In this document: positions 31,834 to 64,000 of the stretch, piece by piece
How the letters are laid out: every line of letters begins with the position of its first letter
Numbering within the stretch: the stretch's first letter is position 1
Translations under genes and position numbers: made by a program
Notes under the pieces: model-generated
What the model saw: the letters and a program-made list of their open reading frames with translations, nothing else
What the model was told of the DNA's origin: nothing
Databases searched by the model: none
Assembly: GCA_963825865.1 (NCBI GenBank)
Contig: CAWGVG010000005.1
Location: 32,001-96,000, forward strand
Direction: 5' to 3'
Origin: an uncultured Nitrososphaeraceae archaeon
Lineage (GTDB): Archaea > Thermoproteota > Nitrososphaeria > Nitrososphaerales > Nitrososphaeraceae
Length of the DNA: 64,000 nt

Positions 31834-32310
31834 ATGTTCAACACAAATATCTCTATAAGGATAAGTTTTACTGCTGTTGTATTAGCGGCAGCAATAGCAT
31901 CTGCTAGTGCAGTATTGGAAATTGGAATTATTAATGGCAGTCAATCTCAAATAACACCCTCCTCACCTACTTCGCCATCACCTACTAACAAGACTGTTTC
32001 ACCTGAACTAAAATCAAAGATGTGTGATCCTAATAACCCAAAGCTTAGGTTTGTTAATACAACTGAGTCAAATATATGTGGTATTCCAAAAACAATAAAA
32101 AACGTCACAACACCAACACCAACACCACCTACACCTTCATCACCAACACCACCTACACCTTCATCACCAACACCACCTACACCTTCATCACCAACACCAC
32201 CTACACCTTCATCACCAAAACCAATAACACCACCTTCATCACCAAAACCAATAACACCACCTTCAGAAACAATACCAACCCCACAGGAACCCATACCTGG
32301 ATTACCATAA
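31834..32310 (+). CDS. Secreted Pro/Thr/Ser-rich protein
   Basis: Signal peptide, CDPNNPKL..VNTTES.ICG core, 24-bp tandem repeats encoding PTPPTPSS at ~32115-32265. Confidence 0.7.
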   Translation: MFNTNISIRISFTAVVLAAAIASASAVLEIGIINGSQSQITPSSPTSPSPTNKTVSPELKSKMCDPNNPKLRFVNTTESNICGIPKTIKNVTTPTPTPPTPSSPTPPTPSSPTPPTPSSPTPPTPSSPKPITPPSSPKPITPPSETIPTPQEPIPGLP

Positions 32311-58554: not shown

Positions 58555-59592
58555 TTATTTGGATGTCACAATCACTTTCATTGAATCCTTTCCTTCATCT
58601 GCGCATCTTATTGCATCATCAGTATTTTTAATGTCAAAACGGTGGGTTATTAAACACTTTACGTCTAAGCGCTTCTCTACAATCAATTTTAATGCCTGGT
58701 TTGTTTCAATCTCTGATGCGGCATAAGTCGGAATGATAGATTGTTCATTTGCGTATAACTTGTTCACATTGACCGGAATTTCCGATCCTTTGGATGGGAC
58801 ACCAAAGAGCATTATTTTACCTGCTTTTCTTGTTACGTCAAAAGATTGTTCAAGTGCTTTTGCGCTTCCTGTGGCAACAATTGAGATATCAACACCTCTG
58901 TAGCCAGTAACATTTTGTATTTTTTTGATGAGGTTACTTTCAGTCATAGAATTAAAAGCTTGGACATTATCATATTTTTTTGCAAAATCCACTCTAAAAT
59001 CGTTGATGTCGAGTACAATGATTTTTCCTGCACCCAATGCTTTTGCAAGAGTCACATGCATCATTCCTGCAGGACCTGCTCCGAATACTGCAATATCATC
59101 GCCTTTTTGAAAATTGCACTTGTTTATTGCTCTTATACAACATGCTAGTGGCTCAATAAGTGATGCTTCATCAAACGTTACGCTGTCTGGTAATTTTATA
59201 AGCCCTCCTCGAGAAAGGTTCCATTCAGGTACTAAGAATTCTTCGGATAATCCACATGGATCAATTTTACTTTTTTGATACATGGCACACATCGTATAAT
59301 CTCCATGCCAGCAATAATAGCATGAATAGCAGCTAACGTGATGATGAATGAAAACGCGATCTCCCGGTGCAAAATCTTTCACGTATTTTCCTGTATTTAT
59401 AATCTCACCTGAAGGCTCATGTCCAAGTCCAGAGGATGACATCCCATATTGACCATGGACTTTCTCCAAATCAGAACCACACAGTCCGCATGCGCGCATT
59501 TTTATAAGAACATCTCCATCACCTAGTTTTGGAGTTGCTACATCGTCAATTGAAACTGCATTTTTACCTTTGACAAAGACAGCTTTCATCAA
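58555..59592 (-). CDS. Zn-dependent (sorbitol/threonine-type) dehydrogenase
   Basis: CGLCGSD, GHEPSG, CYSCYYC......C, EPLACC, GAGPAG. Confidence 0.9.
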   Translation of the reverse strand: MMKAVFVKGKNAVSIDDVATPKLGDGDVLIKMRACGLCGSDLEKVHGQYGMSSSGLGHEPSGEIINTGKYVKDFAPGDRVFIHHHVSCYSCYYCWHGDYTMCAMYQKSKIDPCGLSEEFLVPEWNLSRGGLIKLPDSVTFDEASLIEPLACCIRAINKCNFQKGDDIAVFGAGPAGMMHVTLAKALGAGKIIVLDINDFRVDFAKKYDNVQAFNSMTESNLIKKIQNVTGYRGVDISIVATGSAKALEQSFDVTRKAGKIMLFGVPSKGSEIPVNVNKLYANEQSIIPTYAASEIETNQALKLIVEKRLDVKCLITHRFDIKNTDDAIRCADEGKDSMKVIVTSK

Positions 59593-60185
59593 TCGGAGAT
59601 TAGAACTTCAACTATAAAAAATGTCTTAACACATCACAACATATTAACGAAATTTGAAAAATTTGCGTTCCATCATATAAAACAATCCGTTGTTTTTGAA
59701 ACAAGGGATTGTTATTTCAAAAGTAGTAAAATATATTTTAATATTGCAGCTTCGTATTCTTAAATAAGGTATTGTCATAAAAACCGTTCCAATAACTGAT
59801 ATAAGATTAGATTATATGGTTACTAAAAGTGTGATAAAAATAAATTCCTCTATGTGACGTTATAGCGGCATAATAATGACTAAATCGCATAGTGGTATTG
59901 AGTCGTAATATGCAATCCAATAAAGATTCACCCTTTCCGTACCTTGGCATGGTTAGCTCTTTCTAATACTGTTAGGATTGATCATTGATCGTAGAAAGTA
60001 TCTACTGCAAACACAGATACATTCCCTTCTCCTTGGATAGGTATAGTAATATAGTTCTTTGAATCAATTTTTAATCTACATTATAAAGAAATTTACTAAT
60101 CCTGATAGCGATTATTGCAGTTGTGGTAATTGTTATTTAACTCTGGTATGGGTAGAACTTATGGTTCGATATATTATCTATATAT

Positions 60186-60204
60186 CGCACAAAATCTTTA
60201 TAAA
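60186..60204 (+). promoter_or_regulatory. BRE/TATA promoter of the ilv-leu operon
   Basis: CGCACAAAA-TC-TTTATAAA (TATA at 60197-60204), implying a start site near 60225-60230. Confidence 0.65.
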
Positions 60205-60244
60205 TTATATCATTGCAATCTATGAATAATGCCTTGGGCTAAAA

Positions 60245-60319
60245 GTGAAGGGTCTTGTATTACCTCGCAGCCTGCAGGGTACAGCGGTTACAGTTGTACT
60301 TCTGGTGCTGCTGCTTTAA
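60245..60319 (+). CDS. Candidate branched-chain amino-acid leader peptide (uORF)
   Basis: GTG-initiated MKGLVLPRSLQGTAVTVVLLVLLL*; 8 Leu and 5 Val in 24 codons; last 8 codons all Val/Leu; ends 52 nt before ilvB. Confidence 0.65.
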   Translation: MKGLVLPRSLQGTAVTVVLLVLLL

Positions 60320-60371
60320 ATCATACTCTGCACTTTATTTTGACAGGGCATTTTGGTGGAGATATATATAA

Positions 60372-62063
60372 ATGGTGGAGATGGCCGGCGCAAAAGGCTT
60401 GATTTGTGCTCTTGAAAAGGAGAACGTGGACATAGTGTTTGGACTTCCAGGTGGAGCAAACCTTCCTATCTATGATGCTCTAGTGGATGCTGGTCACCTA
60501 CGTCATATTCTTGTACGGCATGAACAGTCTGCTGCTCATATGGCTGACGGCTATGCAAGAATAAAAAGGAGAGCTGGAGTGTGTTTTGCTACTTCTGGTC
60601 CAGGTGCCACTAATCTTATCACAGGTATCGCTACAGCATATGCTGATTCTTCTCCTTTGATCGCTGTAACTGGTCAAGTGCCATTAGCTATGATCGGAAA
60701 AGATGCTTTCCAAGAAACTGATATCATTGGTGTTGCTAATCCTTGTACAAAGTATGCGTTCCAACCAACAACAGCAAGCGAAATCCCAGAATCAGTAAAA
60801 AAGGCTTTCTATATAGCAGAAAGTGGAAGACCTGGTCCTGTGCTCATAGATATTCCCAAAGATGTGCAGCAGGCTACTGCAGATATGAAATTTCCTGAAC
60901 TTATCAAGGTAAGGGGTTACAGTCCTATCGTTGATGCTGATCTATCTCAAGTGGGAAAGGCTGTTGAAATTTTGCTTAAAGCGGAAAGGCCAATCATAAT
61001 GGCTGGTGGGGGTGTAATTCTTTCAGGTGCTTTTTCCGAATTACAGGCACTTGCAGAATTGTTAATGACTCCTGTAGTAACTACCTTTAAAGGAAAAGGC
61101 GCGTTTCCTGAAAATCATCCTCTTGCTATGGGACCCATTGGAATGCATGGACATGCGGAGGCCAATAAGATCATCATTGAAGCAGATTGCATACTCGCAG
61201 TGGGTGCAAGGTTTTCTGATAGATCGATAGGAAGATTTGACGAGTTTGGAAAAGGGATGAATATTATCCATATGGATGTCGATCCTGCAGAAATTGGTAA
61301 GAACAAGTCTGTCGATGTCGCAGTCATAGGCGATGTAAAATCATCGTTGAGAACACTTGTTAAGATGCTTCCAAGAAAAATGGTGAAAAAAGATACAGAA
61401 AACCCTTGGCTAAAGAGAAAAAAGGAGCTAATCGGATACTATGCTGAAACGCTTAAAGACTATCCAAGGGACCTTACAGCCAAAAAAACTCTAAAAAAAC
61501 TTAGAGAAATTTTACCTGCCAACGCAATTGCAACTACTGAAGTGGGTCAATGTCAGATGTGGACATCATTGCATTTTGATGTAATTTCACCTGGTACCTT
61601 TTTTAGCTCGACAGGTCTTGGAACAATGGGATTTGGATTTCCTGCTTCAATAGGTGCAAAGGCGGCTAGGCCAGAAGTGCCAGTGGTAGACATTGCAGGC
61701 GATGGTTCTTTCAACATGACAGAAAATTCTCTAGCCGTATCTGTTCTAGATAACCTCCCGGTAATCGTGTTTTTAATGAATAATTATATGCTTGGAATGG
61801 TAGCTCAATGGCAGAGAACATTTTATAACAGAAGATACATGGGAGTACATCAGCACAACCTCCCTGATTATGCAAAGATAGCAGAGGCATATGGTGCACA
61901 GGGAATCAAAGTGCAATCATCGCAAGAGTTAGAAAAGGCAATTAAATCTGCCTTGAAGACGGAAGTTGCCACTGTCATCGATATTCCAATTGATCCTGAA
62001 GAAGATGTTTATCCGTTTGTAGCACCTGGTACAGGTCTTAAAGATATGATTACAGGATCATGA
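60372..62063 (+). CDS. ilvB: Acetolactate synthase large subunit
   Basis: FGLPGGA, RHEQSAAHMADGYAR, TSGPGATN, GRPGPVLIDIPKD, GDGSF...NNYMLGMVAQWQ. Confidence 0.97.
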   Translation: MVEMAGAKGLICALEKENVDIVFGLPGGANLPIYDALVDAGHLRHILVRHEQSAAHMADGYARIKRRAGVCFATSGPGATNLITGIATAYADSSPLIAVTGQVPLAMIGKDAFQETDIIGVANPCTKYAFQPTTASEIPESVKKAFYIAESGRPGPVLIDIPKDVQQATADMKFPELIKVRGYSPIVDADLSQVGKAVEILLKAERPIIMAGGGVILSGAFSELQALAELLMTPVVTTFKGKGAFPENHPLAMGPIGMHGHAEANKIIIEADCILAVGARFSDRSIGRFDEFGKGMNIIHMDVDPAEIGKNKSVDVAVIGDVKSSLRTLVKMLPRKMVKKDTENPWLKRKKELIGYYAETLKDYPRDLTAKKTLKKLREILPANAIATTEVGQCQMWTSLHFDVISPGTFFSSTGLGTMGFGFPASIGAKAARPEVPVVDIAGDGSFNMTENSLAVSVLDNLPVIVFLMNNYMLGMVAQWQRTFYNRRYMGVHQHNLPDYAKIAEAYGAQGIKVQSSQELEKAIKSALKTEVATVIDIPIDPEEDVYPFVAPGTGLKDMITGS

Positions 62064-62070
62064 CACTAAT

Positions 62071-62610
62071 ATGTCAACAACAACAACAACAACTACGACA
62101 AACGAACAAAGTAAACATTGGTATATACTATCTGCTCTGCTAGAAAACAAACCAGGTGTTTTATTTAGAGTGACAAACCTTTTCAGAGCACGAAACTTTA
62201 ACATTGAAAGTATAACGGTAGGTTCCACTGAACAGGTCGATCTTTCAAGGATGACGATTACCACTAAGAGTGATGAAAAAACGCTAGATCAGCTTGTAAA
62301 ACAGCTTAGGAAGTTGATTGATGTAGTAGAGGTAAAAGTGCTTGATACAGATAAAACAGTTTTCCGCGAACTGGCCTTAATCAAAATGAAGGCAGAAGAT
62401 CCCACTACAAGAATGGAAATAACTAATTTCGCATCTATATTTAGAGCAAACATACTTGACATAGGAAAAGCAACCATTCTTGTAGAACTTACAGGAACCC
62501 CGGACAAAATAGATGCGTTTAAAAATCTCGTCGGACATTATGGGATAATACAGTTGGCAAGAACTGGTGTTTCAGCACTCCCAAGAGGTGAAACCTTAGT
62601 GTTAGACATG
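62071..62610 (+). CDS. ilvN: Acetolactate synthase small (ACT) subunit; no stop codon before leuA in this sequence
   Basis: LENKPGVL.RV..LF.AR.FNIESITVG, QLRKLIDV, RELALIK, ELTG.PDKIDAF, ARTGVSAL.RG. Confidence 0.93.
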
Positions 62611-64000
62611 ATGGATAAAGTTAGAATTTTTGATACTACGTTAAGAGATGGTGAACAGACGCCAGGGGTATCAGTTACTCCAGAACAGAAATTCAAGATT
62701 GCTATTAAACTAGATGAAATAGGTGTAGACGCTATTGAGGTTGGTTTTCCAATTGTTTCTCAAGGTGAAATGGAAGCAATAAAAGCAATAACCAAACAAG
62801 GATTAAATGCGGAAGTTTGTGGTCTGGCACGTACAGTTCAAGCGGATATTGATGCTGCAATAAATTGTAATTTAAAGTATGTACACACTTTCATTGCTAC
62901 TTCTGACATCCATATGCAATACAAGCTTAAAATGAGTAGGGAGCAGGTGTTAGAAAAAGCAATATGGGCAGTAGATTATGCCAAGAAAAATGGCATGCAG
63001 GTAGAATTTTCGGCAGAAGACGCAACGAGATCAGATAAGGTATTTGTAAACACGGTTTTCAAGGCAGTTGCTGATGCCGGTGCTGATAGATTAGATATTC
63101 CTGATACTGTCGGTTATGCCACTCCTCAATATATTGCAGAACTCGTTAACGATGTGAAGATAGCAACGAAACTTCCCGTCAGCATACATTGTCATGATGA
63201 TTTTGGGCTAGCTGTGGCTAACGCAATTTCTGGAATAAATGCCGGTGCCTCCTGTGCGCATGTAACAATAAATGGTTTAGGAGAAAGAGCGGGAAATGCA
63301 TCACTTGAGGAATTTGTTATGGCGCTTCAATGTCTATATAATAAGAAACACAATATTAAAACTGAGTTACTTTATGAAACCTCCAAACTTATCTCCAACA
63401 TAATGGGAATAATTGTTCAACCAAACAAAGCAATAATTGGTGAAAATGCTTTTGGTCATGAATCTGGCATCCACACACACGGTATTATAAATAATCCGCT
63501 TACTTACGAACCAATTAGTCCGGAACTAGTTGGAAGAAAAAGATGGATGCAAGCTGGAAAACATGCTGGGGCCCATGGTATCAAAGCAATGTTAGAAGAA
63601 TTTGGGATCAAACCAACAGATGAACAGCTACATAATATCGTCGAAAAACAAAAAAACCTTGCAGACAAAGGAAAATCAATAACTACCGCAGAACTTTTAT
63701 CAATAGCTGGAGATATTATGCATAATAACAGGTTTGAAGAGAAATTCAAACTCTATGATTTTCATATTGTAACTGGAATGAATACCATACCAACAGCTGT
63801 TGTTAGATTGAATACAGATGGTAAAGATTTCATTGCATCTGAAATTGGCGTTGGACCAGTAGATGCTGCATTGAAAGCTATACAAAAGGTCGCAGGAGAA
63901 ATGGAGAACATCAAGATCCGTGAATACAGATTAGATTCTATTACAGGAGGTTCCGATGCGTTAGCCGAAGTTTCAATAAAGGTAGAAGACAAAAAAGGAA
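62611..64000 (+). CDS. leuA: 2-isopropylmalate synthase (LeuA/CimA family), runs off the window
   Basis: RIFDTTLRDGEQTPG, EFSAEDATR, PDTVG, HCHDDFG, GLGERAGNA, AFGHESGIH, GVGPVDA. Confidence 0.9.
   Translation, partial: MDKVRIFDTTLRDGEQTPGVSVTPEQKFKIAIKLDEIGVDAIEVGFPIVSQGEMEAIKAITKQGLNAEVCGLARTVQADIDAAINCNLKYVHTFIATSDIHMQYKLKMSREQVLEKAIWAVDYAKKNGMQVEFSAEDATRSDKVFVNTVFKAVADAGADRLDIPDTVGYATPQYIAELVNDVKIATKLPVSIHCHDDFGLAVANAISGINAGASCAHVTINGLGERAGNASLEEFVMALQCLYNKKHNIKTELLYETSKLISNIMGIIVQPNKAIIGENAFGHESGIHTHGIINNPLTYEPISPELVGRKRWMQAGKHAGAHGIKAMLEEFGIKPTDEQLHNIVEKQKNLADKGKSITTAELLSIAGDIMHNNRFEEKFKLYDFHIVTGMNTIPTAVVRLNTDGKDFIASEIGVGPVDAALKAIQKVAGEMENIKIREYRLDSITGGSDALAEVSIKVEDKKG

Follow-up and report, generated by a model that had tools for sequence, protein, structure and literature searches.

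Leader-peptide attenuation is textbook gene control that relies on coupled transcription and translation, and to our knowledge it has been described only in bacteria. The leader peptides ivbL (ilvBN), ilvL (ilvGMEDA) and leuL (leu) are enterobacterial attenuators of this type, and leuL uses the rare codon CUA. In Escherichia coli's tna operon, TnaC senses free tryptophan via its nascent peptide, and the stalled ribosome blocks the Rho site. Here we describe a candidate for such control in an archaeon. It lies in 64,000 nucleotides of DNA from an uncultured Nitrososphaeraceae archaeon (positions 32,001 to 96,000 of contig CAWGVG010000005.1, assembly GCA_963825865.1), which are called the window below and whose own numbering is used throughout, and it consists of a short open reading frame (ORF) with a Val/Leu-rich end and a hairpin behind it. 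Together they make up the 5' leader of an ilvB-ilvN-leuA operon in an ammonia-oxidising archaeon, assigned to the Nitrososphaeraceae by its nearest named relatives. A first-pass annotation of the window had proposed a Val/Leu-sensing leader-peptide attenuator at this place; the leader peptide and its leaderless start by way of a one-base indel are strongly supported by comparison, and the mechanistic details offered with them (an antiterminator, a U-tract and access to the ribosome-binding site) are not borne out.

The archaeal leader resembles ivbL, ilvL and leuL in that a short leader ORF belongs to a branched-chain amino-acid operon and a hairpin stands between this ORF and the first gene. 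The ORF contains a run of end-product codons, dominated by Val and Leu as in ivbL, and makes use of an otherwise rare Leu codon, as CTG accounts for 39% of the Leu codons in the tail of the leader and for 9% in ilvB of the same loci. In contrast to the enterobacterial systems, the promoter and the RNA polymerase are archaeal, the leader ORF is leaderless and lacks its own Shine-Dalgarno (SD) site, the regulatory codons reach right up to the stop codon with the hairpin beginning at the stop, and neither the conserved 1:2, 2:3 and 3:4 helices nor a regular U-run are present. The archaeal leaders also lack a match to leader families of Pfam, NCBIfam or Rfam: in Rfam, the window leader gave only a chance-level match to an upstream small RNA (E 6.1, with E up to 10), and no match was obtained in 11 related loci (E up to 1). 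The common ground with TnaC would be a ribosome that is detained where a short leader ORF ends and governs the RNA just behind the stop. The archaeal signal would instead be hungry codons, and FttA as the archaeal factor is a speculation.

Leaderless unannotated short ORFs with polycysteine runs come close among the bacterial cases, and the passages on them in 10.1101/834739 propose for mycobacteria that a stalled ribosome blocks RNA structure directly. They too form the first cistron of an amino-acid operon and carry a run of the cognate codon; they differ in the domain of life, in the residue (Cys instead of Val/Leu) and in that the archaeal hairpin lies upstream of the SD site, with access to the SD site and the AUG unchanged in folds. 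For ilvBNC of Corynebacterium, an upstream ORF (uORF) and a three-hairpin attenuator are described in parts of PMC10272879 and PMC11857589. This case and the bacterial-type control leaders of our own set (L095, L196-L206) have in common with the archaeal leaders the operon and a V/L/I-rich leader peptide followed by a GC-rich hairpin, whereas the bacterial ORFs are SD-led, their terminator has a T-run, and there is no sequence homology to the archaeal leaders. Attenuation in Mycobacterium tuberculosis, again bacterial, is among the closest literature (PMC13236596, in part), and the passages that mention archaea in PMC11616081, PMC7858274 and PMC2965389 are silent on leader-peptide attenuation. 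In the full-text literature, which leaves most subscription journals outside the search, no report of leader-peptide attenuation in any archaeon was found, in agreement with the first-pass annotation, which regarded such a mechanism as not established in archaea. The principle is bacterial textbook knowledge; the novelty lies in the domain, in the start without a leader, in a run that directly adjoins the stop codon and in the missing classical helix set.

From 40 relatives within the order we retrieved ilvB together with flanks of 1.5 kb, and a candidate leader was found upstream of the gene in 27 of them. The V/L/I-rich uORF that was to be looked for in the ilvB upstreams of relatives is an order-wide feature and not a single case. 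Its layout is common to the candidates: a TATA box, an ATG 29-39 nt on, an ORF of 13-37 codons with a Val/Leu/Ile-rich end, a stop codon, and ilvB 30-74 nt further. Each upstream was scored by the highest number of V/L/I residues that the final 10 codons reach among all ORFs of 10-45 codons (starting with ATG, GTG or TTG) within 260 nt upstream. Three of the 27 candidates are weak, L026 and L038 with a score of 5/10 and L032 with TTG as its first codon. Within the own family the leader is present in 13 of 25 genomes, and among the 15 other families of the order with ilvB it is clear in 11 and doubtful in four (L026, L032, L036, L038). Two genomes of genus g3 in the own family (L012, L013), each with 9-10 ilvB-like matches, have a variant leader which is Ile-rich instead of Val-rich (MTIYKPIIQLNYYKFEKGIITLIEILKLV).

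A leader could also be assigned in 36 of 46 loci from records of named ammonia-oxidising archaea, including Nitrososphaera, Nitrosopolaris, Nitrosopumilus, Nitrosarchaeum, Nitrosotenuis and Nitrosopelagicus. For example, Nitrososphaera leaders read MPRTDSEHNVHVLVLLELA and MPQTGSEQSRHKVKILVLLVLA, and those of the Nitrosopumilaceae (the last four genera) comprise 13-20 codons and often end in LLLVDLVL. In the Nitrosopumilus/Nitrosarchaeum group (L062, L063, L067, L069-L071, L073, L075, L076), an invariant CACATTAAAATTATGG is located between the leader stop and ilvB, 32-35 nt upstream of the ilvB start. The Nitrosocosmicus-like group has no convincing leader: L054-L058 score 6/10 and L059 scores 5, and the architecture of the element is seen in none of them. 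The element was likewise not seen in the sampled archaea that do not oxidise ammonia (Bathyarchaeia, Wolframiiraptor, Methanomethylicota, Geocrenenecus and others).

Among independent metagenome contigs, 26 of the 44 loci with an ilvB identity of at least 66% score at least 6. An exact 37-base search in metagenome contigs gave no match, and no contigs of the same species were found in metagenomes, the closest having 91% ilvB identity. As positive controls, the bacterial-type leaders L095 and L196-L206 were recovered by the method; L095, a single bacterial locus from an Acidobacteriota record, has the classical leader MYPSLIQNATLRLSEKIVSLVVLVVLQ and then a strong terminator hairpin of -18.5 kcal/mol. 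Below 66% ilvB identity, the metagenome contigs L196, L197, L199, L202, L205, L206, L216 and L223 contain strong V/L/I leaders (up to 10/10), several of which end in ILQ or IIQ like L095, and these are probably bacterial attenuators. Another three contigs (L207, L215, L217), whose TATA boxes look archaeal, may widen the range of the leader among archaea.

A score of at least 7 was reached by 40 of 82 distinct ilvB upstreams of ammonia oxidisers, by 1 of 82 reverse strands of the same upstreams, by 1 of 33 loci of non-ammonia oxidisers (that one a bacterial attenuator) and by 26 of 793 upstreams of random long ORFs in the window genome; the compared sequences are related, so these counts overstate significance and are no probabilities. 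In the window itself, nine of the last 10 residues of the leader are Val, Leu or Ile. Of the 868 TATA-anchored leaderless short ORFs of the same genome, three reach 7 and none reaches 8. The Val/Leu run in the window is beyond chance.

The enrichment is confined to the end of the ORF and to one frame. In 61 leaders, V/L/I residues make up 61-89% at each of the positions -1 to -8 (89% at -2), 43-49% at -9 and -10, and at most 36% further up. In the tail they amount to 68% in frame (Leu 40%, Val 21%, Ile 7%), compared with 19% and 10% in the other two frames, and F, M, A, W, Y, C and G together contribute only 10%. In groups of equal length, variable columns of the tail fall on codon positions 1/2/3 in the numbers 25/16/27, with T kept in the second position, and 145 of 357 same-residue pairs use different codons. 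In the head the numbers are 44/37/45. The peptide sequence is unconserved between families; composition, position and frame are conserved. These patterns indicate that selection acts on the codon class and not on the peptide or nucleotide sequence, and the head is not under selection as protein because its variable columns have no third-position bias. The first-pass annotation had expected synonymous-biased substitutions in orthologous leaders, and the head does not have them; we read this absence as evidence against a functional peptide, not against translation. The pattern is the one expected of a leader peptide and speaks against both a small membrane peptide and a nucleotide motif.

TATA motifs in the window genome peak 30-38 nt upstream of the first ATG of long ORFs, for which reason leaderless mRNAs seem common in this organism. 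A cTTTATAAATTAT box is found 29-39 nt upstream of the leader ATG in nearly all relatives. In the window, ATG 60229 is 32 nt past the start of the TATA box and falls within the genome's own mode, so that it has the geometry of a leaderless start, and judged by this spacing it would be the start of the leader ORF. The first-pass annotation had listed this TATA box (60197-60204), a 24-codon uORF (60245-60319) ending in eight Val/Leu codons, and further on the hairpin, the TTTT run and GGTGGAG; all of these are present, and the start codon of the 24-codon ORF is GTG, not ATG. Its suggestion that a one-base indel joins this ORF to an upstream ATG is borne out for 60229, where relatives and one public contig have the joined ORF of 29 codons; ATG 60222 opens only a 6-codon ORF. 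The last eight codons (60293-60316) read VVLLVLLL, that is 8/8 Val/Leu, and 52 nt separate the leader stop from ilvB. Between the TATA box and the leader ATG, Nitrososphaeraceae have a conserved ATATCAYTGCAA (60205-60228 in the window; also in L002, L003, L007, L009, L043 and L048), which could be a promoter-proximal element or the operator of a regulator.

The first paired base of the hairpin is located -3 to +3 nt from the stop codon in most leaders. The stems differ by lineage (CTCTGC/GCAGGG, GCAAACCCTG/CAGGCGTTTGC, CCCACAG/CTGTGGG, AGGGCTCA/TGAGCCCT and others), and the window hairpin is the positional homologue of the CTCTGC/GCAGGG hairpin of its relatives. RNAalifold on a MAFFT alignment of 21 leaders yielded no consensus structure, the arms being misaligned, and a second alignment contained a one-column register shift between two subgroups; hence an alignment-free arm-swap test was used. 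In this test, native arms pair at -9.91 kcal/mol and chimeras at -7.91 kcal/mol, and 0 of 5000 permutations are as low. When each lineage is represented once (16 in all), native arms give -13.0 and chimeras -8.67 kcal/mol, again with 0 of 5000 permutations as low. Because native arm pairs are more stable than chimeras, the hairpin is conserved as a structure, and its arms co-vary across lineages. Compared with dinucleotide shuffles, hairpin stability in 58 leaders has a mean z of -0.94, and 13 of the 58 are below -1.65. Several deep families have very strong hairpins (z of -6.3 in L025, -4.4 in L030, -4.4 in L031 and -4.1 in L035) and Nitrososphaera has moderate ones, while in the window and much of the Nitrosopumilaceae they are absent or weak.

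What the above supports well is a leaderless leader ORF whose rate of translation must vary with Val/Leu(/Ile)-tRNA, in such a place that its ribosome meets a conserved hairpin ahead of the operon making these amino acids. On balance we favour, with some reserve, that the leader is a ribosome-stalling sensor of Val/Leu(/Ile) supply ahead of ilvB-ilvN-leuA, by which the hairpin would be masked or formed. In the proposed course of events, the promoter would start the mRNA at or beside ATG 60229, and a ribosome would load on the 5' end and translate the ORF of 29 codons, the last eight of which would serve as the sensor of charged Val/Leu(/Ile) tRNA. When Val and Leu are scarce, the ribosome would linger on the run abutting the stop; if its A site is within the final two to four codons, its leading edge would reach the base of the hairpin, the hairpin would be blocked and the operon expressed. 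When Val and Leu are plentiful, the ribosome would finish and depart, the hairpin would form and the expression of ilvB would be lowered. The output would most likely be a transcription stop or stall before ilvB, with factor-dependent termination, RNA decay or processing ranked second. The relevant passage of PMC7261190 gives archaeal footprints a length of 27 nt and puts their 3' edge 15-16 nt from the P site, so that direct masking requires the ribosome to stall within the final two to four codons. In our folds, a ribosome at -5 leaves the hairpin intact, and one at -2 or at the stop opens it in leaders with the stem at the stop. The V/L tail pairs with neither hairpin arm (mean z 0.09 and 0.01).

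Several points weigh against this proposal, besides the relatedness of the compared sequences mentioned above. That the ORF is translated and the ribosome stalls, which way the switch works, whether amino acids elicit a response and, above all, what the output step is are all things that we infer. In the own family, 12 of 25 genomes (L004, L014-L024) are without the leader, and in them a separate TATA box stands close to ilvB or the leader of the gene is short. Members of the Nitrosopumilus group have a conserved TTAAAATTAT 32-35 nt upstream of the ilvB start, which is the spacing of the TATA box of a leaderless ilvB; it could be a second promoter, and the leader would then act otherwise, e.g. 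by interference. Among the 868 TATA-anchored short ORFs of the window genome, no leader for another amino acid (His, Trp, Thr, Phe, Arg and others) was found before the matching biosynthesis gene, and in the hisG upstreams of 28 loci, inspected by eye, a His-rich leader ORF was not seen. If the mechanism is real, these organisms do not employ it generally.

Other points of this kind concern the hairpin and the output step. The window hairpin is no more stable than its shuffles (-6.7 against -5.3 kcal/mol, z = -0.74). At least four of the eight bases after the hairpin are T in only 17 of 58 leaders, and a run of at least five T occurs in the spacer of 5 of 58. Moreover, the 870 gene ends of the window genome have no structure excess (z -0.13, compared with -0.11 inside genes), and because of this a hairpin terminator is not the usual signal of this organism. 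T5 runs are about twice as frequent at its gene ends as in coding sequence (143 vs 60 of 870), and a scan for bacterial promoters and terminators found no terminator-like site. The U-tract that the first-pass annotation placed behind the hairpin is not general. The antiterminator proposed there, a pairing of 60324-60332 with 60273-60281, does appear in the fold of the untranslated window leader (z = -1.9 against shuffled ORF bodies) but is weak across the relatives, where pairing of the ORF body with the 5' arm has a mean z of -0.39 across 48 leaders with 8 below -1.65; no classical conserved antiterminator emerges. Finally, a ribosome stalled at codons -5 to -8 would fall short of the hairpin; direct masking works for the last few codons only, and severe starvation could reverse the outcome.

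The frame of the leader is broken in the window as assembled. The opening of the leader is common to relatives (MPWAKSEGSCITSQ in the window, MPWTKGEEFCITSSQ in L002, MPWAKGEEF in L149-L151), and beyond 60271-60272 the reading of the relatives matches the other frame of the window (...LQGTAVTVVLLVLLL). Without the extra base, the ORF 60229-60319 has 29 sense codons, and 29 codons is also the leader length in L002, L005, L006, L008, L040, L047 and L149-L155; as assembled, ATG 60229 opens a frame of 57 codons running into ilvB. We judged the coverage of this site from assembled Logan contigs of four public runs aligned to 59950-60650. No contig of run X1 aligned to this interval, and contigs of X14 and X16, both RNA libraries, begin at 60287 and 60461, so neither spans 60271. 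X2, a DNA run of another study, contributes four contigs, and the only one that spans the site (5129 nt, depth 8.08 of 13.1) omits one base at 60271. At 60244-60271 the X2 contigs are also interrupted, leaving two pieces of 61 nt, with depths of 2.7 and 2.3, that end at 60271. Because the only X2 contig across the site omits the base, an intact allele of the leader exists in nature, and the extra C in the window is either an assembly error or a strain allele.

If the extra C is real, the window leader might be a dead copy: ribosomes starting at ATG 60229 would read the 57-codon frame across the hairpin and past the ilvB start, and in this strain the operon would have lost or altered its control by amino acids. 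We regard this as possible but doubtful. The base is present in the assembly, the breaking of X2 contigs into two short pieces is the pattern of a polymorphic site, and the same operon has a second unusual change, the replaced stop of ilvN (TTA, where L002 has TAA). Yet the only bridging contig lacks the base, the frame is kept in every relative with this leader type at 29 codons each, and a Val/Leu run that is still 8/8 is unexpected after long disuse; a one-base error in a CC pair is an ordinary artefact of a metagenome-assembled genome.

The same tRNA-charging sensor could also work with a hairpin that is not a terminator, the position of the ribosome controlling access of FttA/aCPSF1 to the naked leader RNA, 5'-to-3' decay or processing (with the hairpin and the stalled ribosome acting as blocks), or the initiation of ilvB. 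All evidence for the sensor applies equally here, and the missing generality of the U-tract, the lack of hairpins at ordinary gene ends of the window genome and the strong GC hairpins without a T-run behind them in the deep lineages L029, L030 and L031 are in its favour. Archaeal RNA polymerase terminates at oligo-T, and a hairpin is not needed. The translational version of this reading coincides with the control of ribosome-binding-site access that the first-pass annotation considered, and the folds with a ribosome footprint speak against it: in 61 leaders, the stretch from the SD site to the AUG of ilvB has an unpaired probability of 0.52 when the A site is at -5 and of 0.53 when it is at -2 or at the stop, the value being lower by more than 0.1 in five leaders and higher by more than 0.1 in four. 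We therefore rejected a switch of ribosome-binding-site access, the accessibility being the same at all ribosome positions. No sequence pointer to a particular factor site was seen, and two features bring the hairpin back towards termination: a conserved GTTTGTTTGAAA behind the 3' arm in Nitrososphaeraceae, and TTTG paired with CAAA adjoining the stop codon in Nitrososphaera, a layout that looks like a terminator. As an alternative, we hold an output other than termination at the hairpin to be unlikely. The X14 contig begins at 60287 and continues past the hairpin into ilvB, as would be compatible with transcripts of the upstream promoter that read through; RNA libraries can contain DNA, for which reason the contig establishes no start, no end and no transcription.

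In archaea, the usual regulators that respond to amino acids are of the Lrp type, and a DNA-binding regulator (e.g. of the Lrp family) could act at the promoter-proximal sequence, with the V/L run as a nucleic-acid motif that has nothing to do with translation. The conserved ATATCAYTGCAA between TATA box and ATG in Nitrososphaeraceae would suit such a regulator. But the run has a period of three (T in the second codon position), is always in frame with the leaderless ATG and always ended by a stop, and its nucleotides vary by lineage with the residue class constant; a regulator of this kind may exist in addition, yet it leaves the ORF unexplained, and as an alternative we consider it very unlikely. 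Least probable of all is that the ORF codes for a small hydrophobic peptide which has its own function (e.g. a membrane peptide) and whose place before ilvB is incidental: its C-terminal end is hydrophobic and one of eight leaders looked up in a protein collection is called as a gene ('hypothetical protein'), but the hydrophobic stretch of about 8 residues is too short to span a membrane, the composition (68% V/L/I, with the residues F, M, A, W, Y, C and G scarce) and the unconserved remainder without third-position bias do not fit, the link to ilvB holds in at least 12 families, and 0 of 24 leader peptides match Pfam or NCBIfam (E up to 1).

The features of the locus are listed in Table 1. 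A stretch of 780 bp without a long ORF separates ilvB from an alcohol-dehydrogenase-like gene (58555-59592, minus strand, divergent). Behind ilvB, the second part of the next ORF is 2-isopropylmalate synthase (leuA), in the same frame as ilvN, and this fusion is unique to the window genome among the genomes compared. A separate ilvN of about 160-186 codons, terminated by a stop, is present in 25 relatives, and L012, L018, L019 and L029 gave no clean reading. In L002, ilvN and leuA are in one frame with a single TAA between them, at the place where the window has TTA (junction at about 62590-62600); the joining is either a real fusion or a base error. In relatives of the same family, GGTGA is found 7-12 nt upstream of the ilvB start. 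Just 5' of the ilvB ATG, the length of an (AT)n stretch (60361-60371) varies between samples, and the X2 contig carries an additional AT after 60361.

Table 1. Features of the ilvB leader and operon, in window coordinates
Feature	Position	Strand	Basis or remark
TATA box TTTATAAA	60197..60204	+	A-run 60191-60194 before it, resembling a B recognition element
Leader ORF, 5' part	60229..60270	+	ATG 60229; frame reads MPWAKSEGSCITSQ
CC, one C extra relative to relatives, frame shift	60271..60272	+	L002 cagctgca, window cagcctgca
Leader ORF, 3' part	60273..60316	+	frame of GTG 60245, ...LQGTAVTVVLLVLLL; translation
TAA stop of leader ORF	60317..60319	+	sequence
Hairpin	60326..60348	+	begins 6 nt past stop; RNAfold: 5' arm 60326-60332 paired with 3' arm 60341-60348, A60343 bulged, loop 60333-60340 (CTTTATTT)
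TTTT run	60351..60354	+	sequence
GGTGGAG, SD-like site of ilvB	60355..60361	+	sequence
ilvB, biosynthetic acetolactate synthase large subunit	60372..62063	+	TIGR00118, 701.7 bits (cut-off 538); three thiamine pyrophosphate-enzyme domains
ilvN (residues 19-175) in frame into leuA (residues 179-643)	62071..63999	+	domain and profile matches; ORF continues past the window end

Upstream regions examined for comparison contained two further conserved stretches. In Bathyarchaeia (L091, L092, L096, L097, L099, L100) and also in L213, a different uORF of 16 codons, MRD[CRY]HL[HN]S[WR].R[RW]V..L, is located about 100 nt upstream of ilvB (about -150 to -100). It has its own SD-like GAGG, GGGATCGTC twice in the DNA and Val/Leu/Ile codons at its end, and is without an Rfam match; since it is conserved as sequence, it may be an RNA or protein-binding element. 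Upstream of hisG, several thermophilic-looking families (L124, L127, L147, L148) share a stretch similar to GGGGA...TCACTTC...CCC at about 100-170 nt, which is perhaps a tRNA gene or fragment, as in L139.

In its widest form, our proposal is that ribosome-mediated amino-acid attenuation exists in Archaea: a leaderless V/L/I leader would be ancestral to ammonia-oxidising archaea and kept in most families, from soil Nitrososphaera to marine Nitrosopumilus, and would work without the bacterial terminator/antiterminator set, the ribosome on the last codons masking a hairpin that acts on RNA polymerase alone or with FttA. For this whole statement, we hold the evidence for and against to be about evenly balanced. 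The element is unannotated, and a rule for finding it is now available. With a conserved archaeal case, the attenuation principle would extend to a eukaryote-like RNA polymerase, and if true, such a case would offer a natural substrate for how ribosome position reaches archaeal transcription or termination factors. For the ammonia-oxidising archaea, a globally abundant group in which we know of no other cis-acting metabolite-responsive element, it would mean, if true, that a branched-chain amino-acid operon is under cis-acting, metabolite-responsive control.

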